From assembly GCA_963782055.1 (NCBI GenBank), contig CAWAIF010000003.1:6624001-6688000 (forward strand): DNA of 64,000 bases. Reading direction: 5' to 3'. Below the pieces are notes generated by a model. The model had not been told where the DNA came from. It worked only from the letters and a program-made list of their open reading frames with translations, and searched no databases. A program made the translations under genes and the position numbers. The DNA is from an uncultured delta proteobacterium. Its GTDB lineage: Bacteria; Myxococcota_A; Polyangia; Polyangiales; Polyangiaceae. Every line of letters starts with the position of its first letter. The stretch's first letter is position 1. This document shows, one piece after another, positions 52,413 through 62,083 of the stretch.

Positions 52413-52430
52413 AGAGAGAGAGAGAGAGAG
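52413..52430. repeat. (AG)9 microsatellite
   Basis: Immediately after the LysM gene stop. Confidence 0.9.
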
Positions 52431-52437
52431 GAGGGAT

Positions 52438-52626
52438 GCCCCTCCTCGCGTGTGCTCGGGCCCATGCTCGCTCGCACGCGCGCCGATCGATGGGTGCAGA
52501 GTGCACGCGCTCCGGCACGCGCGCGAGCTTGCGCGTGGGCCCTGCGCGCACGCGTCCTCCCCACGGTGTCGCGCTCCGCGCGCCACACGGGGAGGAGGGT
52601 GCGCCGCGCGGGGCGGACCTCGGCGC
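52438..52626 (+). repeat. Left ~190-bp imperfect inverted repeat (pairs with 60171-60359)
   Basis: Collinear blocks shared with the reverse complement of the right copy: GCCCCTCC, TGCTCGGG, CTCCGGCACGC, GCTTGCGCG, CCCTGCGCG, TGTCGCGCTCCGCGCGCCA, GGGGAGG, GGTGCGCCGC, CGGACCTCGGCGC. Confidence 0.88.
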
Positions 52627-52676
52627 AGGGAACCGGGCGCGAGCGCGAAGCGCGGGCGCGAGGGCGGGCGGCTGGC

Positions 52677-52716
52677 GATCGGCGACGTTGCCGAAAGATC
52701 GGCGACGTCGCCGATC
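52677..52716. repeat. Double palindrome, copy 1
   Basis: GATCGGCGACGTTGCCGA-AAGA-TCGGCGACGTCGCCGATC, 4 nt past the stop of 52721-53407. Confidence 0.85.
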
Positions 52717-52720
52717 GGCG

Positions 52721-53407
52721 TCACTCGACGGGGACGCGCGCCTTGGCCAGCGAGCGCAGCACGTCACCGAAGAGGCGCACGGGGATGCGGCCGATCGTGA
52801 CGTGGCCACCGGCGTAGTGAACGGTAACCTCCTTCGCCGACGCAGGGACGTGCTTGACGATCTCCGTCACGACAGGGCTGCGCTTCGCCCCGGTCGCGCC
52901 CGCCTTGCGCACCTTCTTCGTCGCGTCCCGGAGCTGCGCCACGGTCGCGTCGGCGAAGGGCACCGTCCCGGCGCCCCTTGGGATCCGGAGCTTGCCGAAG
53001 TCCACGGGGATGCGGCCGCTGGCCGGCTTGCCGTGCTTCGCCTCGAGGTAGTCGACGACCGCGTCGATCTTGCTGGCGCCGTAGCGCTTCTCCTCGTCGG
53101 GCGAGGCGTACCTCGCCACGCGCGCGCTCCGCAGCACGTTGCGCACCGTCTCGTTCGGGAGGTACTTCCTCACGAAGTCGCCGACGGTGGAGACCCCGCC
53201 GGCGAGGTAGAGCGGCGGGTTGTGGTCCAGGATCTCGCCGACGGCCTCGTACTTGCGGTCGAAGGCGAACGCGTCCTCGCGGTCGGCGCGCCGGAGGGCC
53301 GAGAGGGACGCAGCCCAGGCCTTCTTGAGGGACTGGTCCACCTTCACGGCGACGGTGCGCTGGACAGGGCGTCGGGGCTTCGCGGCCCTCCTCTTCGTGG
53401 TCGTCAT
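52721..53407 (-). CDS. Basic putative DNA-binding protein (DUF3102/ParB-HTH-like, tentative)
   Basis: Lys/Arg-rich. LYLAGGVSTVGDFVRKYL..ETVRNVLRSARVARY resembles the F..F....L...R.A...M.VA HTH pattern. Confidence 0.65.
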   Translation of the reverse strand: MTTTKRRAAKPRRPVQRTVAVKVDQSLKKAWAASLSALRRADREDAFAFDRKYEAVGEILDHNPPLYLAGGVSTVGDFVRKYLPNETVRNVLRSARVARYASPDEEKRYGASKIDAVVDYLEAKHGKPASGRIPVDFGKLRIPRGAGTVPFADATVAQLRDATKKVRKAGATGAKRSPVVTEIVKHVPASAKEVTVHYAGGHVTIGRIPVRLFGDVLRSLAKARVPVE

Positions 53408-53449: not shown

Positions 53450-53493
53450 GATCGCGCTCACGCCAGCGCTCGCATTCGCTGATCGCGATCAGC
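53450..53493. promoter_or_regulatory. Putative enhancer (UAS) pair 1
   Basis: GATCGCGCTC at 53450 and GATCGCGATC at 53481 (inside the perfect palindrome GCTGATCGCGATCAGC); 31-bp spacing. Confidence 0.65.
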
Positions 53494-53555
53494 CCGCCGC
53501 CGCACCCGGCGACGACAAGCCCGCGAGAACACTGGGCGCCGGAGGCAAGCGCGGC

Positions 53556-53570
53556 TGGCGCCCAGGTTGC
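53556..53570 (+). promoter_or_regulatory. sigma54 promoter P1 (DUF2130-kinase-activator genes)
   Basis: CTGGCGCCCAGGTTGCA; exact GG-N10-GC with TTGC. Confidence 0.7.
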
Positions 53571-53664
53571 AACCGGTGCTTGCGGCGCCCTCGCGCCGGC
53601 CCCCCCCCGTGGGGGGGGCAGCCAACCACGCGGCCGATGTCCGCGTGCTTCCCAGGAGCTTGCC

Positions 53665-55030
53665 ATGAAGAACGAACACCAAGCAATGACGACGCCGATT
53701 CGATGCCCGAAGTGTGGAGCCGAGCTCGGGCTCGACGCCGTGATCCGCGCTCGAGATCGCCCGCGACATGGAAGGGCAGCTCGCCGAGCAGCGGAAGGCG
53801 GCCGCAGCCACGGAGGCCGAGCTCCTCCGCCGCCGACGTACGATGGAGGAGAGGGAACAGGAGATGCTCCTCGACATGGAGCGACGTCTCCACGAGAAGA
53901 CCGAGGCGATCCGCGCGCAGGAGGCGAAGGTCGCCGTCGAGCGGGCGCGACGCGACGCGGAACAAGGGATGCAGGAGAAGAACCGCGAGCTGGCCGAGAT
54001 GCAGGCTCGTCTTCGTGGCGCCAATGCCAAGGAGGCCGACCTGCTCCGGCGTGAGCGGCTCGTCATCCAGCGTGAGGAGCAGAACACGCTGGAGGTGGAA
54101 CGCCGGATCGCAGAGGAGATGCAGCGGGTTCGCAAAGAGCAGGCGGAGGCGGCGGAGCAGCGTCAGGCGCGGGAGCGCGACGAGCGCGCGCTCCGTGAGG
54201 AGGAGGACCGGCAGCAGAAGGCGCTCCTCGAGAAGAAGATCGTCGAGCTGGAGCACCAGCTGCGCAACGGCCCGAACCACGTGCATGGGGAAGCGCAGGA
54301 GGTACTGCTCCAGTCCGCACTCGCGCAAGAGTGGCCCCACGACGCCGTGCGCGACGTGCCGAAGGGTGTCGCCGGCGCCGACGTCCTGCATACGGTCCGC
54401 GGTCCCCATGGTGAGGACAGCGGCACGATCGTCTGGGAGAGCAAGCGGACGAAGGAATGGTCCAGGGCGTGGATCAGCAAGGTGCGACGCGATCAGACCG
54501 CGGCTGGCGCGTCGCTCGCCGTCATCGTCACCCGTGCGCTGCCGGCTGGCATCCGTGGCTTCGGGTCCCACGAGGGCGTGTGGGTGTGCGAGTGGCCGTA
54601 CGCGGTGGCGCTCGGTGCGGCGTTGCGCGCGGGCCTCGTGGAGCTGTCTAGTGCCAGGCGCGCGGCGGAAGGTCGGGGAGAGAAGACCCAGGTGATGTAC
54701 GAGTACCTCACCGGGCCTGAGTTCAAGAACAGGGTGGAGGGATTGCTCGATGCGTTCAGGGAGTTGAAACACGACCTCGAGTCGGAACGACAAGCCACCG
54801 AGAGGCGCTGGGCGCGTCAGGATCGCCTGCTCCAGCGCGCCAGCACCAACGTCGTCACGTTCTGTGGGGACATCGACGGCATCTTGGGGGCACGCCTTGT
54901 CGGCAAGCACCGGGACGCGCTCGCCAGCGGTGATGAGGGAACCCCGCGTACCCCGTCGGCGAAGCTCCTCCCCCGCTCGAGCGCAGCGCTCGTGGCACGG
55001 CCGCCGCGACGCCGGAAGCTCGCCCGCTGA
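53665..55030 (+). CDS. DUF2130-like protein (CxxC, coiled coil, restriction-endonuclease-like C-terminus); frameshifted at ~53752 in this sequence
   Basis: AGGAG RBS; IRCPKCG; GEAQEV.LQ..L...WPHD.V.DV.KG..GADV; GTIVWESKRTKEWS..WI.K; MYEYLTGPEF. Removing one base gives ...VIRAEIARDMEGQL... Confidence 0.82.
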
Positions 55031-55172
55031 TCGATGACGACGCCCTCGTGAGCCATCATGCCGAGTGACGAACGCGGCCAGCCCAGCCACTCGACGCTGG
55101 AGCTGGCCGCGTGGGCTCGTCTTTGGAGCCGTGGATGTGCATTGCACGCTATCCTTCCCGGTCGTGGATCGC

Positions 55173-56714
55173 ATGGGTTGGGTCGGCGCGACCCTCGAGG
55201 GCAAGTACCGGATCGACGCCCTCGTCGGCGAGGGCGGCTTCGGTTGCGTCTACCGCGCAGTGCACCTGCGGCTCGGCACGCCGGTCGCGGTGAAGTTCCT
55301 GCGGCCGGAGCTCGCGCTCGGCTCCGGCGACGCGGCGAAGTTCCTTCGTCGCTTCGAACGCGAGGCGCGAACGCTCCAGAACCTCTCGCGTGCCACGACG
55401 GGCGTGGTGCAGGCGCACGACTTCGGCGTGGCCACGTCGCCCCGCGGCGAGGAGACGGCATACCTCGTGATGGAATGGCTGGAGGGACACACGCTGTCGG
55501 ACGAGCTCGCCGCGAGACCGCGGCGCTCGCTGACAGACGCCCTCGAGCTGCTGTCACCGGTGCTCGACGCGCTCGCGGTGGCGCACGACATGGGCATCGC
55601 ACACCGCGATCTGAAGCCCGCCAACCTGATGGTGTGCCGTGTCGGCGGCCGCCCCACGGTGAAGGTGCTGGACTTCGGCATCGCGCAGGTCCTGGGGCCG
55701 GAGCACGAGGCCACGTGGATCGGCGTCGGCGGCAACAACACGCGAGTCTTCTCCCTGGCGCACGGCGCGCCGGAGCAGTTCGATCCCGGCCTCGGTCCCA
55801 CGGGCCCGTGGACCGATGTCTACGCGGTGGGCCTCCTGATCCTCCAGCTCGTCGACGGTGAGCACCCCTACGCCGGCGACACGTACGCGGAGCTGCGCGC
55901 CCAGGCGCTCGACCTGGAGCGACGCCCGGCCCTTCGATCCGACCGGAGCATCGACGACGTGATGCGGCGAGTGCTCGCCGTCGACTGGCGGAATCGGCCG
56001 AGGACTGCCGGGGAGCTGCGCGTCGAGCTGACGCGGGGCGAGGGCGAGGACGACCTGGGCCCGCCCACCTCCAGGATGCCGTCCGCGCCGGTCGCCCCGA
56101 CCCCGGCCGCGCCCGTCCCGCCTGCGCTCCTCGTACCTGCTCGCACCTCATCGAGTCACCCGCTCTGGACAATCGTCGCCGTCGGCGCCGGTATTGTTTT
56201 CCTCCTCCTCGCCGTCGGTGGCGCGATGGCCGCCAGGCTGCTCCTTCAAGGTGGGCGAACGACCAGCTCGGCTCGCGATGCCGCGCCGACGAGGGAGACG
56301 CAGGCTCGCGACGTGCTGAAGCAATGGAACGACGCCGAGGACAGGCACGACATCCCCGAACTTGAGTCCATGTACGCGGACCGCGTCCACTTCTACCATG
56401 CAGATCTCACCCCCCAGCAGTGCGGCGACAAGCTGCGAGGCCTGTATCGTGCCTACCCCGGCTTTATTCAGCAGGTCCATTGGGACACGGTCACGGTCGA
56501 GTCGCTGGAGAGCTCCGCCGGGGCGCGCGTGTCGTTCGACAAGACCTACCCGACGAAGACCGGCGTCAGCACCGTGCGCGGGTACCTCGTCCTGGACGGC
56601 GAGATGAGGATCGTCGAGGAGAGCGACGCGAGGACGGATTCTGGTGCTCGATCCGACGGGCTCGAGGGACCACCGTCGGTAGAAGCCGGCGCCACGCAGG
56701 CGGCCATGCGCTAG
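55173..56714 (+). CDS. Membrane Ser/Thr kinase with an extracytoplasmic NTF2/SnoaL-like domain
   Basis: GEGGFGCVY, VAVK, HRDLKPAN, DFG and GAPEQ motifs; TM IVAVGAGIVFLLLAV; C-terminal VLKQWNDA...YADRVHFY (fold tentative). Confidence 0.88.
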   Translation: MGWVGATLEGKYRIDALVGEGGFGCVYRAVHLRLGTPVAVKFLRPELALGSGDAAKFLRRFEREARTLQNLSRATTGVVQAHDFGVATSPRGEETAYLVMEWLEGHTLSDELAARPRRSLTDALELLSPVLDALAVAHDMGIAHRDLKPANLMVCRVGGRPTVKVLDFGIAQVLGPEHEATWIGVGGNNTRVFSLAHGAPEQFDPGLGPTGPWTDVYAVGLLILQLVDGEHPYAGDTYAELRAQALDLERRPALRSDRSIDDVMRRVLAVDWRNRPRTAGELRVELTRGEGEDDLGPPTSRMPSAPVAPTPAAPVPPALLVPARTSSSHPLWTIVAVGAGIVFLLLAVGGAMAARLLLQGGRTTSSARDAAPTRETQARDVLKQWNDAEDRHDIPELESMYADRVHFYHADLTPQQCGDKLRGLYRAYPGFIQQVHWDTVTVESLESSAGARVSFDKTYPTKTGVSTVRGYLVLDGEMRIVEESDARTDSGARSDGLEGPPSVEAGATQAAMR

Positions 56715-56723
56715 CATGGCCGG

Positions 56724-58070
56724 ATGGGGACCGAGAAGCCTACGGAGGAGCTCACGGGGCCCGCGAAGGGCCCCGCCGGCGCCGGACCTCCGGGACTGAT
56801 CATGGTGTATCCGGAGAAGCGCGCACTCCGGGTGCCCATCGACGAGCCGTGCGGCCGCGACTGGCTCGGTGCCGAGGGCACCAAGGCTTCTCGGCGCCAC
56901 ATCGTCTTCACCAAGGCGGGCAGCCGGCTGACCGTCGAGGATGTCGGCTCGCGTAATGGTACGTGGGTCGACGGAGAGCGGCTCCTCGAGGGGCAACCCG
57001 TTGACCTGGAGAATGGTTCGATCCTGCGCATCGGCGCCGCAGTGCTCGTGTACCGAAGCTCCTTCGGCCTCCCTTACGAACCCGACGCGCCGCTTCAGGT
57101 CCGCGAGGGCCCTTTCCGCGAGCTGATGAGCCCTTTCGGAATGCGTCGCGCCAGAACCGAGATCGATGCCATCGTGTCTCAGTCTCCGACTCCCAGGAGC
57201 ATCCTCATCGAGGGCGAATCGGGCACCGGCAAGGAGTTCATCGCGCGGTATCTCGCCGAGCGCTTGCACCCCGGGTGCCCCTACCTCCCAGTCAACGTCG
57301 CCGCCATCTCGAAGGAGCTGTTCGAAGCGGAGCTGTTCGGGTACGTCCCGGGAGCGTTCTCCGGCGCGCGCGCCGGAGGAAGGAAGGGATACGTCGAGGA
57401 GTGCAACGGCGGCACCCTGTTCCTGGATGAGATCGGAGAGCTTCCCGTCCAGGCGCAGGCGAAGCTGCTCCGCTTCCTCGACAGCGGCGCGTTCCTTCGC
57501 GTGGGCGAGACCAAGGTCCAGACGGCGAACGTGCTCGTCATGGCGGCGACGAATCGAACCCTCGACGACGAGGTCCGCGAGAAGAGGTTCAAGCACGACG
57601 TGCGCGCGCGCTTCCAAGCGTATCTGAGGCTCCCGCCGCTTCGCGACCGACCGGAGGACATCTGGGACATCGCCCGCACCGCGATGCCTGAAACGCCCGC
57701 GGAGGCCCAGGCCGTCGAACGGCTCCTGCTCGAGAGGTGGGGGAAGGGCAACATCCGGGAGCTCCTCAGCACAGTCTCGCGGAGCGTGGCGTCGCAACGG
57801 GCGTCCTTCCCGGGTGTGCCGCCCGCTCTTGCACATTGGGCCGTCGAGCAGACCCTCGCTCTGGCACACGGAGCTGTGGAGCAGACCGCCGATCCAGCAA
57901 GACGCGCGTCCCTGCTCACCCCCGACCGGATCCGACAGGCGCTCGCAGACGCGGGCCAGAACATCACCCACGCCGCCCAACGGCTCTCCACGCCGGGGCA
58001 CACTGTCACCATTGGGACGCTCCGCAGGCGAATGAAAGAGTTCGGGATCAAGCGGGAGAGCTCGGGCTGA
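56724..58070 (+). CDS. FHA-domain sigma54 enhancer-binding protein
   Basis: FHA GR..ASRRH..DVGSRNGTWV; Walker A GESGTGKE; ELFG..PGAFSGA; LFLDEIGEL; GNIREL; Fis-type HTH. Confidence 0.92.
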   Translation: MGTEKPTEELTGPAKGPAGAGPPGLIMVYPEKRALRVPIDEPCGRDWLGAEGTKASRRHIVFTKAGSRLTVEDVGSRNGTWVDGERLLEGQPVDLENGSILRIGAAVLVYRSSFGLPYEPDAPLQVREGPFRELMSPFGMRRARTEIDAIVSQSPTPRSILIEGESGTGKEFIARYLAERLHPGCPYLPVNVAAISKELFEAELFGYVPGAFSGARAGGRKGYVEECNGGTLFLDEIGELPVQAQAKLLRFLDSGAFLRVGETKVQTANVLVMAATNRTLDDEVREKRFKHDVRARFQAYLRLPPLRDRPEDIWDIARTAMPETPAEAQAVERLLLERWGKGNIRELLSTVSRSVASQRASFPGVPPALAHWAVEQTLALAHGAVEQTADPARRASLLTPDRIRQALADAGQNITHAAQRLSTPGHTVTIGTLRRRMKEFGIKRESSG

Positions 58071-58111
58071 TCGCGATCGCCAACGCGGGCGGTCTAGCTG
58101 ATCGCGATCGG
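58066..58111. promoter_or_regulatory. Putative enhancer (UAS) pair 2
   Basis: GCTGATCGCGATCG twice, with GATCGCGATC starting at 58069 and 58100; 31-bp spacing. Confidence 0.7.
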
Positions 58112-58175
58112 TGACCACGACCCCGCCCATGACGCAACCTGTCGGAACTCCTCGTCATCGTCCCGTCCGGTCGCG

Positions 58176-58190
58176 TGGCACGCGCCGTGT
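58176..58190 (+). promoter_or_regulatory. sigma54 promoter P2 (TPR-HicA-peptide operon)
   Basis: TGGCACGCGCCGTGT: consensus -24 TGGCACG, variant -12 (TGT instead of TGC). Confidence 0.5.
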
Positions 58191-58203
58191 ACTGGGTCGC
58201 GGC

Positions 58204-58500
58204 ATGACCTCGTCAGCCGCTTCCCGTCGCCTCACTCTTCACGACCAGATCCTGCTGGCCCTCCGCGCCGACGACCACGACGCGGCGCGCGTCCTCCTGC
58301 GCCGCATGCTGCTCCTGCTACCGCTCGAGGACTGCCGCGCGCGGGCCGACGTGCTCGTCACGCTCGCCTATGTCGCCATCGAGGGAGGGCGCGCGCAGGA
58401 AGGCCGCGCCATAGCGAACCTTGCCCTCGCGCTCGTTCCCGGCCACGCCCTGGCCGAACGCGAGCTGGAGCGCGCCACCCGCGGCGTGGGCATCCGATGA
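58204..58500 (+). CDS. Small TPR-like helical protein
   Basis: ADVLVTLAYVAIEGGRAQEGRAIANLALALVPGHALA is TPR-like; ATGA-coupled to the next ORF. Confidence 0.6.
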   Translation: MTSSAASRRLTLHDQILLALRADDHDAARVLLRRMLLLLPLEDCRARADVLVTLAYVAIEGGRAQEGRAIANLALALVPGHALAERELERATRGVGIR

Positions 58501-58973
58501 GCGGCCACGGAGATCCGAGAAGTTGGCGCGAGCTGCGCACCGAGCTCCGGAGCCTGGGCGCGCGCAGCGTGCGAACGAAGGGCTCTCACCAGGCCTGGAG
58601 GTTCGCGGACGGGGAGGTGTTCGTCCTGGTCGTCAACCACCTCTCCGACCCCGTACCCGGAGGCATCCTCGCGGAGTTTCGTCGCCTCAGGCGACGCCGC
58701 CTCGGACCTGCCCGCGAAGAGCCACCACCAGCCAGACACGCGAGAGCACAGTGCTCGGGCGGTCGATCCGGCAAGAAAGGAGAAGTGATCATGAGCAAGG
58801 GAAGCAGCGGCGGCAGAGGAGGTCGCGGTGGGCCGAAGGGCGCCGGTGGCCCGAAGGGCGCCGGTGGCCCGAAGGGCGGCAGCGGTCCCAAGGGCGGCCA
58901 GGCCCACGGCGGCAACTACCCGAGCACCACGGGAAACGCCTCCGGAGGCGGGCGAGGAAACACGCCGAGGTAG
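58497..58973 (+). CDS. HicA/YcfA-like toxin domain, in frame with the downstream Gly-rich peptide
   Basis: RELRTELRSLG...VRTKGSH..W......V....H....VP.GIL matches the HicA pattern including the GSH histidine. Confidence 0.65.
   Translation: MSGHGDPRSWRELRTELRSLGARSVRTKGSHQAWRFADGEVFVLVVNHLSDPVPGGILAEFRRLRRRRLGPAREEPPPARHARAQCSGGRSGKKGEVIMSKGSSGGRGGRGGPKGAGGPKGAGGPKGGSGPKGGQAHGGNYPSTTGNASGGGRGNTPR
58791..58973 (+). CDS. 60-aa Gly/Lys-rich microprotein with its own RBS
   Basis: AAAGGAG-N8-ATG; four 18-bp repeats (58827-58898, GGPKGA/G); ends GNYPSTTGNASGGGRGNTPR. Confidence 0.6.
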   Translation: MSKGSSGGRGGRGGPKGAGGPKGAGGPKGGSGPKGGQAHGGNYPSTTGNASGGGRGNTPR

Positions 58974-59016: not shown

Positions 59017-59066
59017 ACCGGGATCGGCAACGTCGCCGATTTTTCGGCAACGTTGCCGATCCCGGT
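59017..59066. repeat. Double palindrome, copy 2 (inverted relative to copy 1)
   Basis: ACCGGGATCGGCAACGTCGCCGA-TTTT-TCGGCAACGTTGCCGATCCCGGT. Confidence 0.85.
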
Positions 59067-59169: not shown

Positions 59170-59480
59170 ATGACTGCCTAGGCGGTCCAGGCGCGAGCAG
59201 AGCCGATCGTCGTCTTCCGCAGCGTCAATCGTGACGGCGAGACGTACGCGCTCGAGCCGCGCTCGTTGGATCGGCTTCGGAAGGAGCTCGGCGCTGCCGT
59301 CCACGCTCGGCCTCGCATCTTCATCGCGCACGAGACGCGCGCAGACTACGAGCACATCCATGCCGCCATCGTCGAGCAGATCATCCAGTTGCTGACCGGC
59401 GTCACGGAGGAGCGGCTCCGCCCTCTCGGGGGCGTCATTTTCGGGATCCTGTGACCGAGCGGGATCTCCCACGGGCGTAG
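59170..59480 (+). pseudogene. ~100-aa hypothetical protein with TAG at codon 4 and a 1-nt deletion at ~59442 (pseudogene or read errors)
   Basis: MTA*AVQARAEPIVVFRSVNRDGETYALEPRSLDRL...LGGVIF, then RDPVTERDLPRA* in the shifted frame. Confidence 0.5.
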
Positions 59481-60058
59481 CTGGTGCTGCCGGTGGCGCC
59501 GCACCGAAGCCTCGATCGGCTTGTCCAACCGCACCCGGACCGCCGGCGATGGAGGGCAGCTGGTCGGGCCATTGATCCAGGTAGGCCGTGAGCGATGCCT
59601 CCCAGCCCGTGGCCTCGTGTTCGTTCAGGACCACCTCGAGTCCAAGGGCGTCGGTCTTCGCAGCATCGTCGGCGACCGGCCGCCTGCCCGGTCCCTCACG
59701 CGTCTTGCCGGCTTCGACGTAGGCATCGCGAAGCTTCGAGAGCTCCACCCGCGGCACGATCAAGAAGCGCCACTTCTCCCCGTGGCGCACGACCAGCATG
59801 AAGAAGAGCTCAATCGGCTGCGGTGCAGCGTAGCTGAGCCCGTGAAAGCGTGAACTTCGCCTTCACGCTGCCGCCGTTCGCCTCGCCTTCGGCAGTCTTC
59901 ACCTGCAGGCGCCAGGTCGTCTTGTCGTTGTCATCGATCACGAAGACGTCGTCGCCGACGTCGACCACGGGGACGGCGACATTCCACCCGCGGAGAAGGA
60001 GCTCCGACATCGCAAAGTACTCGCCTGCTCGTCCGAAGTGCGTCTTCTTGTCCGCCAT
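59435..60058 (-). pseudogene. PD-(D/E)XK-type nuclease-like protein; frameshifted at ~59827
   Basis: GRAGEYFAMSELLLRGWNV..P.VDVGDD...LQVKT; continues APQPIELFFMLVVR...FLIVPR after the shift. Confidence 0.65.
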
Positions 60059-60170
60059 CCCCGGCCGCATCCTCGCACGCGGGGGAGGCTGCGTGCACGA
60101 CATTGCGCGTGCGCGGTCACCGCCGGCAGCACCCGCGCTCCCTCACGCGCCCGTGCTCGCGCTCCCTCGC

Positions 60171-60359
60171 GCGCCGAGGTCCGTCCCCGTGCGGCGCACC
60201 AGCCTCCCCGATGGCGCGCGGAGCGCGACATCCGGGGGAGGGGCGCCACGCGCAGGGCTCGCGCGCAAGCCTTCGTGCGTGCCGGAGGCCTTGCATCATG
60301 CACACATCGACGGCACGCGCGAAGGCGAGCACGAGCCCGAGCATGGCGCCCGGAGGGGC
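60171..60359 (-). repeat. Right ~190-bp imperfect inverted repeat (pairs with 52438-52626)
   Basis: Begins at the stop codon of the ABC1-kinase gene; reverse complement aligns collinearly with the left copy. Confidence 0.88.
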
Positions 60360-62083
60360 TACCCCTTCGGTCTGCTCTTCAGGGCGTCGGTCAACCAGTG
60401 CACCAGCCACACGACGGCGCCCACCACGACGAACGCGCCCCCGAGCACGTCGTGGACCTTGCCGTCGAGCAGCATGGCGCCGGAGACGAACAGGCCGGCC
60501 ACCACGATGGCCGTGAAGATGCGACGGCCGATGCGATCCCCCACCTCCGGCATGAGCGGGTCGGGCGTGCGCAGCGCGAGGCGACCCAGGCGCAGGTCGT
60601 CCAGCACCTCGCGAAGCTGCAGGGGCATGTCGTAGCCCACGCGCGACAGCTGCTCCACGCCGCGCCACAGCTCGTTGCCCAGACGCTCCGGCGAGTAGCG
60701 CGCCTTGAGGAGGTCCATGAAGTAGGGCGAGGCCTCGCCGAAGACGTCCAGCTCGGGGTCGAGCTGCTTGCCGATGCCCTCGATGGTCATCAGCGCCTTG
60801 CCCACCAGCATGAAGTCGGTGGGGATCTCCAGGCCGTACTTCATCGCGCCCTGGACGAGATCGCGGATCATCGCGGAGAGATCGATGTCCTTGAGCGGCT
60901 TGCCCAGGTACTTCTCCGCCAGCATGGCGACCTCCGCGCGGTACTCGCGCATGTCCACCTTCTTCGTCGGCCGGCCGATGGCGTACAGCGCGTCGGCCAC
61001 GGCGTAGGGATCCTTGCGGGCGGCGGCGACCATGAGGTCGACGGTGCGGTCGCGCAGCTCCGGGCTGAGCCTGCCCACCATCCCCGTGTCGATCAGGCCG
61101 ACGATCGGATCGTCCTTCGGCCCGATGATGATGATGTTGCCGGGGTGAGGGTCGGCGTGGAAGAAGCCGTCCTCGAAGATCATCTTGATGACCACCGCGA
61201 CGGAGCGCTTGGCGATCTTCTTGCCGTCGGCGCCCTCCTCCACCGCCCTCGTCACCTTGGTGCCGTCGAAGAACTCCTGCGTCAGGACGTACTTGCCGGA
61301 GGCCTGCCGGTAGATCTTCGGGAAGCGGATGTGCGGGTTCGCCTCGAAGCTCTGGGCGAAGCGCTCGCAGTTGTCGGCCTCCACCGTGAAGTCCAGCTCG
61401 CTGGTGATGGAGCGGTCGAACTGCTGCACCAGCCCCACCGGCGAGTAGATCTTCGTCTCCGGCACGGTGCGCTCGAGCGCCGCGGCCATCCAGTGGAGCA
61501 GCTCCAGGTCGCGCGCGACCATCTGCCCGACAGCGGGGCGCTGCACCTTCACCACCACCTCCACCTCGCCCTCCGGCGCCTGGAGCACCGCGCGGTGGAC
61601 CTGGCCGATGGAGGCCGTCGCCAGCGGCTTCTCGTCGAAGCGGACGAAGAGCTCGGAGATGGGCGCGCCCAGGGTCTGCTCCACCTGCTGCTTGATCTCG
61701 GCGAAGGCGACGGGCGGGACCTCGTCCTGGAGCTTCTGCAGCTCGGTGATGATGTCCGCCGGGATGACGTCGGGGCGGGTGGAGACGATCTGCCCGAGCT
61801 TGATGAAGGAGGGGCCGAGCTCCTGCGCCACCATCCGGATGCGCACCGGCGTGGAGACGGTCTTCTTCTCCTTCTCGCCGGCCTGCAGCTCGCCCTCGGC
61901 GAGCTCGGGGACCGCGGGGCCTTCGCCGGAGGGCGGCGGCTCGCTCGCGCCCGGGGAGCGCTCCTTCTTCTTGCGCCCCAGGCCGGCGCGCGTCACCAGC
62001 TCGCCGAAGCCGTGGCGCACCAGGACAGCGGTGATCTCGCGCAGGCGCGCAAGGTCACGGACCGCGGTGAGGACGGAGACCAT
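60359..62083 (-). CDS. AarF/UbiB/ABC1-family atypical kinase
   Basis: LGPSFIKLGQ..STRPD, ATASIGQVH, VKVQRP, ELDF, FFHADPHPGN; C-terminal TM helices. Confidence 0.93.
   Translation of the reverse strand: MVSVLTAVRDLARLREITAVLVRHGFGELVTRAGLGRKKKERSPGASEPPPSGEGPAVPELAEGELQAGEKEKKTVSTPVRIRMVAQELGPSFIKLGQIVSTRPDVIPADIITELQKLQDEVPPVAFAEIKQQVEQTLGAPISELFVRFDEKPLATASIGQVHRAVLQAPEGEVEVVVKVQRPAVGQMVARDLELLHWMAAALERTVPETKIYSPVGLVQQFDRSITSELDFTVEADNCERFAQSFEANPHIRFPKIYRQASGKYVLTQEFFDGTKVTRAVEEGADGKKIAKRSVAVVIKMIFEDGFFHADPHPGNIIIIGPKDDPIVGLIDTGMVGRLSPELRDRTVDLMVAAARKDPYAVADALYAIGRPTKKVDMREYRAEVAMLAEKYLGKPLKDIDLSAMIRDLVQGAMKYGLEIPTDFMLVGKALMTIEGIGKQLDPELDVFGEASPYFMDLLKARYSPERLGNELWRGVEQLSRVGYDMPLQLREVLDDLRLGRLALRTPDPLMPEVGDRIGRRIFTAIVVAGLFVSGAMLLDGKVHDVLGGAFVVVGAVVWLVHWLTDALKSRPKG

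Follow-up and report, generated by a model that had tools for sequence, protein, structure and literature searches.

The 64,000-nucleotide stretch of contig CAWAIF010000003.1 from an uncultured member of the Polyangiaceae analyzed here (hereafter, the window) contains, between positions 53,450 and 58,973, a gene array that appears to be one copy of a Polyangiaceae signaling module with a fixed core and a swappable output, conflict-related cargo having been captured in accessory copies; we assign this reading a probability of roughly 0.6. The core would consist of a membrane Ser/Thr kinase, a sigma54 activator (bacterial enhancer-binding protein, bEBP) with an FHA domain that belongs to a single clade, two GATCGCGATC palindromes separated by three helical turns, and a phased -24/-12 promoter. 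At the level of sequence comparison, the association of the site pair with the promoter and the activator clade, and the presence of the kinase as a neighbor, are established.

An earlier sequence-only reading of the window had described the order upstream activating sequence (UAS), promoter P1, DUF2130 gene, kinase, FHA/sigma54 activator, second UAS, promoter P2, TPR protein, HicA and Gly-rich peptide, and every part of this arrangement was confirmed, in position, on the + strand and in Pfam assignment (Table 1). The kinase-gated sigma54 circuit that it proposed is well supported in its regulatory core by comparative footprinting, whereas the effectors are not conserved with this core.

Paired palindromes and phased sigma54 promoters

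The palindromic sites reported upstream of both promoters are real and share a common design, namely, two GATCGCGATC-type palindromes with a 31 bp spacing followed by a sigma54 box. With one mismatch allowed in one site, the 7.58 Mb assembly that holds the window (97% complete) contains three such pairs, those of P1 and P2 and one at C3:4.71 Mb that precedes a paralogous kinase (49%) and a paralogous activator (44%). The same genome encodes RpoN, and tblastn matches define 45 bEBP loci and 158 Ser/Thr kinase loci; among the former, a pair is found within 4 kb of the two clade members alone, all others being more than 47 kb away from any pair. The exact pair is present in 39 of the 383 genomes of the family, representing 23 of 89 genera, compared with none for the reversed control, and in 5 of 210 genomes outside the family, one of these five being the unpublished G489, on which nothing else in this account depends. 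Of the listed places with the pair, 40 were fetched; one run of GATC repeats and four short contigs were set aside, as were G000 and G001, which were treated on their own.

The promoter scan covered 47 sites (the 40 fetched loci, L001, L015 and the window, with P1 added by hand) and identified a sigma54 box with a score of at least 13 facing away from the pair at 37 of these, as opposed to 2/47 on the wrong strand, 4/47 at a displacement of 400 bp, and, over 200 shuffles, 2.4 on average and 8 at most. The majority of the box matches with a score of at least 11 (37/46) fall at offsets of 33, 43-44, 53-55, 64-66 or 73-75, that is, one helical turn apart. Promoter, cargo and activator are co-oriented at many site-bearing loci, though not all. 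Both boxes of the window are located where they had been proposed; the P1 box is one of 17 strict-consensus sigma54 boxes in the genome, whereas P2 lacks the C of the -12 element. A non-canonical -12 element is also found in the TPR promoters of L015 and L204, and the mutationally characterized nla6 promoter of Myxococcus xanthus has GTGTT as its -12 element (PMC9765219). The predicted +1 of P2 lies about 2 nt upstream of the TPR start codon, and similar spacing of the first gene is observed at several other loci.

An integrase gene abuts the pair in L165, and the pair was considered as a recombination site; this possibility was rejected because the promoter is phased to the pair. As a separate observation, seven GATCGCGATC sites are arrayed in the region L159:1963-2145, most of them with a spacing of 29 bp; on either side lie divergent sigma54 promoters of lipoprotein genes, one of which encodes a C1 peptidase.

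The activator clade and the membrane kinase

The 29 activators compared here form one clade (support 0.99) to the exclusion of 54 others. The FHA residues G-R, S..H and N-G, as well as the Walker A/B residues K and DE, are invariant in all 29, and a Thr is present at one N-terminal position in 28 of them (Thr7, within TEELTGP, in the window). The loop reads GAFS in 25 and GAFT in 4 activators, so that Ser is the clade norm and the GAFSGA loop of the window activator conforms to it. A full-length relative of this activator is encoded in 23 of the 40 fetched loci. Five genomes in which the site has no activator nearby were examined; in four, one clade activator is encoded elsewhere (372-406 bits, the next match being 203 bits or lower), and the fifth has none. 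No clade activator is found in any of the four congeners examined that lack the pair (best match 188-197 bits). The search for related loci that started from the activator yielded mostly generic bEBPs, with 1 of 80 loci (L024) belonging to the clade.

The kinase retains all the characteristic motifs (GxGxxG, VAVK, HRDLKPAN and DFG) and contains one transmembrane helix (residues 331-363), with a weak, below cut-off match to a SnoaL/NTF2-like domain at the C-terminus. A kinase gene is located less than 5 kb from 24 of the 29 clade activators, compared to 11 of the 43 other bEBPs of the genome that contains the window. The predicted complex of the TPR protein with the kinase domain scored 0.00, which counts neither for nor against an interaction.

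A TAnnnT element is found 3-11 nt before the start codon of 12 of the 29 clade activators, including that of the window, against a background of 0.9%; basal expression of the activator, therefore, need not depend on P1. The self-amplification by read-through from P1 that had been suggested for the window is possible, given that the + strand showed no terminator-like site from P1 up to the peptide gene, but appears unneeded, since a -10-like element precedes the activator gene itself.

In the mechanism that we propose for this module, a signal at the outer domain of the kinase would lead to phosphorylation of the conserved N-terminal Thr of the activator, by analogy with GarA/OdhI; the FHA domain would then bind the phosphothreonine, the AAA+ domain would be freed, and the freed activator would open P1 and P2. 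Nuclease or defense genes captured by such promoters in accessory copies, in the window DUF2130 at P1 and TPR-HicA-peptide at P2, would be made only upon signal. Given that the usual output in the family is a coiled-coil membrane protein or lipoproteins, the cue might be envelope damage. Because the DUF2130 gene is frameshifted, P2 is more likely to be the live output in the window than P1.

Outputs of the module across the Polyangiaceae

The most common first gene behind the site pair, found in 17 of the 40 loci (two of these partial), encodes a coiled-coil membrane protein of 340 aa that matches no known family. These proteins (L136:3389-4411 and 16 other loci) are predicted to span the membrane once and share the motifs ETSVxxSLAEL at the N-terminus and CxxxDPxC at the C-terminus; a search of the ESM Atlas with this protein and with the Gly-rich peptide of the window yielded only clusters of hypothetical proteins. 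Other outputs include lipoprotein-like genes in several loci and biosynthetic genes in L166, L170 and L172. Clear nuclease or defense genes occupy the first position in L139, which encodes a PD-(D/E)xK-like nuclease, in L152 (G133:C157), which encodes a viperin (PADLOC E 5e-84, NCBIfam score above the cut-off) with its own activator and kinase adjacent, and in L164 (G333:C1, near 6.571 Mb), where an operon of the cyclic oligonucleotide-based anti-phage signaling system (CBASS), encoding two cyclases in addition to a CHAT-SAVED effector, follows the pair and a sigma54 box. The viperin and CBASS genes begin 2 and 37 nt, respectively, past the predicted +1.

The TPR protein of the window connects additional loci to this group. 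An alignment-based search yielded 15 strong short matches in the 383 genomes; of the 12 new TPR loci fetched, two also carry an activator of the clade; of the 10 others, 7 are located beside a kinase gene, several of them behind a different palindrome. In all five loci that combine TPR with a clade activator (the window, L015, L024, L204 and L209), the TPR gene overlaps the next gene, which encodes HicA in the window and a PD-(D/E)xK-like nuclease of the L139 type in L024, L204 and L209; in L015 it is a HATPase gene, behind which lie two Endonuc_Holl genes and one for a retron-type reverse transcriptase. Further downstream, L209 encodes an NYN RNase as well as the Gly-rich peptide found in the window. 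In L205-L207, L210 and L213-L215, TPR proteins of the same family are encoded behind a palindrome of the TGACA-N5-TGTCA type, often divergently from a degenerate, HEAT repeat-containing kinase; these genes probably belong to a second regulon.

The effector genes of the window

The DUF2130 protein consists of a coiled coil and a nuclease domain in which the active-site residues E..D..ExK can be identified by alignment; a published classification assigns DUF2130 to the PD-(D/E)xK superfamily, with function unknown (PMC3424549). A frameshift near 53745 splits the gene, leaving the CxxC-containing start (53665-) in another frame. The N-terminal piece is 52% identical to the start of an intact paralog, and the CxxC motif is encoded within the same open reading frame (ORF) in 19 of 25 homologous DUF2130 ORFs. 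No palindrome was detected near 28 other DUF2130 loci within flanks of 1.5 kb, in some cases too short to include the promoter.

The identification of HicA is borne out by a Pfam score above the cut-off and by a structural model with the dsRBD-like arrangement alpha-beta-beta-beta-alpha. In the structure search, ranks 2-6 are HicA or other toxin-antitoxin structures, and rank 1 is a hypothetical protein of Thermus thermophilus that we take to be HicA-like; the match probabilities are 0.91-1.0, yet the E-values exceed 0.001. No HicB gene is located beside HicA, the neighbors being TPR and the peptide, and the genome contains no PF15919 match, PF05534 having not been searched genome-wide. HicA and the Gly-rich peptide occupy one open frame (58497-58973). 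Among 10 matches to HicA in the Polyangiaceae, eight are close homologs (49-68%), and in all eight a low-complexity peptide of 48-70 residues directly follows, without HicB; these peptides are of two interchangeable kinds, PSTTGNPSGGGRGN or NVKNPNNP-like. Neither the activator nor the site pair was found near the eight homologs in the 5.8-19 kb fetched. HicA with its small peptide might therefore be a separate mobile, so far undescribed cassette that was placed behind TPR in the window. Both kinds of peptide are also encoded directly behind a sigma54 promoter in L167, L138 and L015. In L220-L227, HicA usually comes after an overlapping gene for a protein of 440-490 aa without a Pfam match, near integrases, OLD/UvrD and restriction genes.

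The dedicated pairing of this control circuit with DUF2130 and HicA that had been envisaged for the window is contradicted for both effectors: DUF2130, HicA and TPR genes are absent from all 40 fetched site-bearing loci, and the pairing is likewise absent from the 28 DUF2130 and the eight HicA loci. The metagenome scan returned mostly background, with clade genes in 7 of the 79 loci examined, none of which contains DUF2130, HicA or TPR. PADLOC 2.0 gave no match for the DUF2130, TPR and HicA proteins of the window and only generic kinase and AAA models for the kinase and activator, and NCBIfam has no model for the DUF2130, TPR, HicA or peptide proteins.

The notion of a signal-gated nuclease or defense output holds in a restricted form, since viperin, CBASS and TPR-nuclease operons, as well as a downstream retron-type reverse transcriptase, are found behind the same promoter but represent a minority of the outputs. 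From these loci one might go further and propose a trans-envelope immunity alarm, in which a receptor kinase senses envelope attack, an N-terminal phosphothreonine/FHA switch fires the sigma54 activator, and a defense module behind the pair, be it local or megabases away, is turned on (viperin, CBASS, nuclease operons or antitoxin-free HicA with its peptide); we offer this extension tentatively, with the odds against it. We consider it unlikely that the regulon serves envelope stress only, with the nuclease, HicA and defense genes being passengers in accessory DNA whose control by the kinase is not under selection. The prevalence of the coiled-coil membrane gene, with lipoprotein-like genes in several more loci, the existence of biosynthetic cargo, and the failure of DUF2130 and HicA to recur with the sites are all compatible with such a regulon; by contrast, the overlap of TPR with nuclease-type genes in five loci, the starts of the viperin and CBASS genes 2 and 37 nt behind the predicted +1, and the occurrence of the same small peptides after the promoter and after HicA alike speak against it.

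Accessory status and integrity of the locus

The description of the locus as an accessory island was partly upheld: among 362 sampled genes, codon usage ranks in the lowest 2-3%, and synteny is absent in five congeners, which together indicate accessory status, whereas the GC content equals that of the flanks (0.68-0.70) and gives no mark. An empty site is not definable because the orthologs of the LysM and ABC1 genes are found in other contexts in congeners, with different neighbors. Two candidates for element boundaries were rejected, namely, the flanking 200-bp inverted repeats, which belong to a dispersed family, and the 40-bp palindromes, which recur elsewhere beside genes for small helical proteins (Table 1). 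The 228-aa gene divergent from P1 was found at none of the other loci with the sites. The region of the window at about 5000-11000 (GC 0.55-0.59) is a clearer foreign island than the kinase-activator locus.

Several observations weigh against the module reading. Within 7.5 kb at the locus, there are two frameshifts and one in-frame stop, compared to a frameshift in 0 of 45 conserved (core) genes tested elsewhere. The helix-turn-helix (HTH) region of the window activator departs from the clade consensus (LGVSRGKL replaced by STPGHTVTIGTL) that its paralog keeps, matches HTH_8 weakly (E 0.02), and has a diverged recognition helix with a 4-residue insertion. In P2, the -12 C is missing. The putative link from kinase to activator is one of adjacency. 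The 29 activators were selected by similarity to that of the window, which favors the single-clade result; several of the loci are close kin; and the weights for the sigma54 box were set by us from the general consensus. Finally, a clear nuclease or defense gene comes first in 3 of the 40 site-picked loci, as against the 17 with the coiled-coil gene.

Some of these points raise the alternative of a decaying island in which the local activator no longer reads the sites and any activity of P1 and P2 would come in trans from the paralogous activator located 2 Mb away. The canonical HTH of the paralog, the DUF2130 frameshift, the non-canonical P2 and the broken neighbors fit this scenario, as does the fact that sites distant from their activator are common; the region 59170-60058, after the peptide gene, contains two broken genes. 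However, the catalytic motifs of the kinase and the activator are all intact, and G179 (87% complete) has a diverged-HTH activator as its sole clade member, with the sites adjacent. Furthermore, near-identical pieces of the locus are present in the public runs X1 and X2, and one X2 contig (depth 2.7) has two additional bases at the DUF2130 break and is in frame there. The pieces from X1 carry one extra base in the T run at 59437 and are otherwise identical. Island decay is the simpler reading of the lesions themselves; a local assembly error is a possible alternative source, with which the T-run difference fits. Loss of site recognition by the local activator ranks next after the envelope-only regulon and appears improbable. 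The version in the sequence-only reading, a dedicated and conserved kinase-activator control of DUF2130 and HicA that forms a self-amplifying abortive-infection switch, accords with the co-orientation of all genes behind matched promoters, the HicA fold without HicB by PF15919 and the lack of a terminator-like site but is very improbable given that the combination recurs in none of the site-bearing, metagenome, DUF2130 or HicA loci, that DUF2130 is broken, and that DUF2130, TPR and HicA have no PADLOC match.

Table 1. Features of the kinase-activator locus and its surroundings (window coordinates, unless a contig position is given)
Feature	Position	Strand	Remarks
UAS pair 1: one weak site, GATCGCGCTC, and one perfect palindrome, GCTGATCGCGATCAGC	53450-53459, 53478-53493	+	31 bp apart
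P1 -24/-12 box TGGCGC-N5-TTGCA	53556-53571	+	offset 64 from pair; score 18.4 of 19.2
N-terminal CPxCG part of DUF2130 gene	53665-53745	+	cut by frameshift; frame runs on to 54054
DUF2130 coiled coil and PD-(D/E)xK-type nuclease domain	53768-55030	+	Pfam E 3e-44
Hanks-type membrane Ser/Thr kinase	55164-56714	+	Pkinase E 1e-32 (Pfam); start estimated from homologs
-10-like hexamer TAGCAT	56712-56717	+	6 nt before activator ATG, overlaps kinase stop; putative leaderless promoter of the activator
FHA-AAA+-HTH enhancer-binding protein	56724-58070	+	FHA E 9e-13, Sigma54_activat E 1e-46 (Pfam)
UAS pair 2: TGATCGCGATC twice	58068-58078, 58099-58109	+	31 bp apart; site 1 overlaps activator stop codon
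P2 box TGGCAC-N5-GTGTA, non-canonical -12	58176-58191	+	offset 65; score 12.6
98-aa five-helix TPR-like protein	58204-58500	+	leader gene; in related loci, coupled to a nuclease-type gene downstream
HicA-fold putative RNase, GSH motif	58497-58750	+	Pfam 28.1 bits, cut-off 27
60-aa Gly-rich peptide, conserved end PSTTGN.SGGGRGN	58791-58973	+	own Shine-Dalgarno sequence/ATG at 58791
Small ORF with in-frame stop	59170		
PD-(D/E)xK (PDDEXK_5) gene, frameshifted	60058-59480	-	
228-aa gene, no known family	52721-53407	-	divergent from P1; paralog at C3:0.889 Mb
40-bp palindrome	52677-52716, 59022-59061; C3:1820546, 2486381, 3737515, 6183842		inverted pairs beside small helical-protein genes
200-bp dispersed repeat	52430-52630, 60170-60360		~45 genome copies

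Comparison with known systems

Myxobacteria possess dozens of sigma54 activators and more than 100 Ser/Thr kinase genes, and in the literature searched the route proposed to lead from kinase to FHA protein to activator comes without a defined site or regulon. The module makes this route directly testable because, besides a promoter and a neighboring kinase, it offers an exactly defined palindrome pair and a Thr that may serve as the phospho-acceptor. Our searches, in which subscription journals were mostly uncovered, found no paper on this palindromic site, on the peptide motif, on the function of DUF2130 or on a kinase-FHA-sigma54 route to defense genes. The module, thus, is best described as a known design with an undescribed, well-marked regulon, for which a minority of the outputs suggests a defense role that appears plausible from gene content.

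Jelsbak, Givskov and Kaiser reportedly described in 2005 FHA-AAA+-HTH sigma54 activators of M. xanthus encoded beside Ser/Thr kinase genes and proposed a phosphothreonine link to sigma54 promoters. The activators analyzed here share this architecture and adjoin kinase genes as well; they differ in that the binding site, phasing, clade and outputs are defined by comparison, in the conserved N-terminal Thr, and in the outputs, which are envelope or nuclease/defense genes rather than the development genes of M. xanthus.

GarA and OdhI operate through an intramolecular switch in which the FHA domain binds an N-terminal phosphothreonine. The resemblance is that a short N-terminal tail bearing a conserved Thr precedes the FHA domain and that the proteins are encoded together with kinases, whereas here the FHA domain is fused to a sigma54 activator and the phosphorylation of the Thr is presumed. 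For OdhI, Thr14 is the phosphorylated residue (PMC2784874).

Nla28 and other M. xanthus enhancer-binding proteins have regulons with tandem sites upstream of -24/-12 boxes and autoregulated operons (PMC9765219). Both features and the tolerance of a non-canonical -12 element are shared with the present clade, which goes with a Hanks kinase and a strict palindrome pair, whereas Nla28 is driven by a histidine kinase and binds degenerate 8-bp repeats. Compared with HicAB type II toxin-antitoxin systems, the fold and the GSH motif of HicA are common to both, whereas here HicB is missing and a low-complexity peptide follows (8/8 homologs).

Activators of the RtcR or CARF-AAA-HTH type are found in conflict and RNA-repair loci, where a nucleotide-binding CARF domain provides the input. 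They resemble the module as sigma54 activators that gate conflict-related genes, the PADLOC models being matched via the AAA domain, but here the input would be a membrane kinase together with the FHA domain of the activator rather than CARF. If defense cargo is indeed induced in this manner, anti-phage genes would be switched by a receptor kinase and not by an intracellular sensor.

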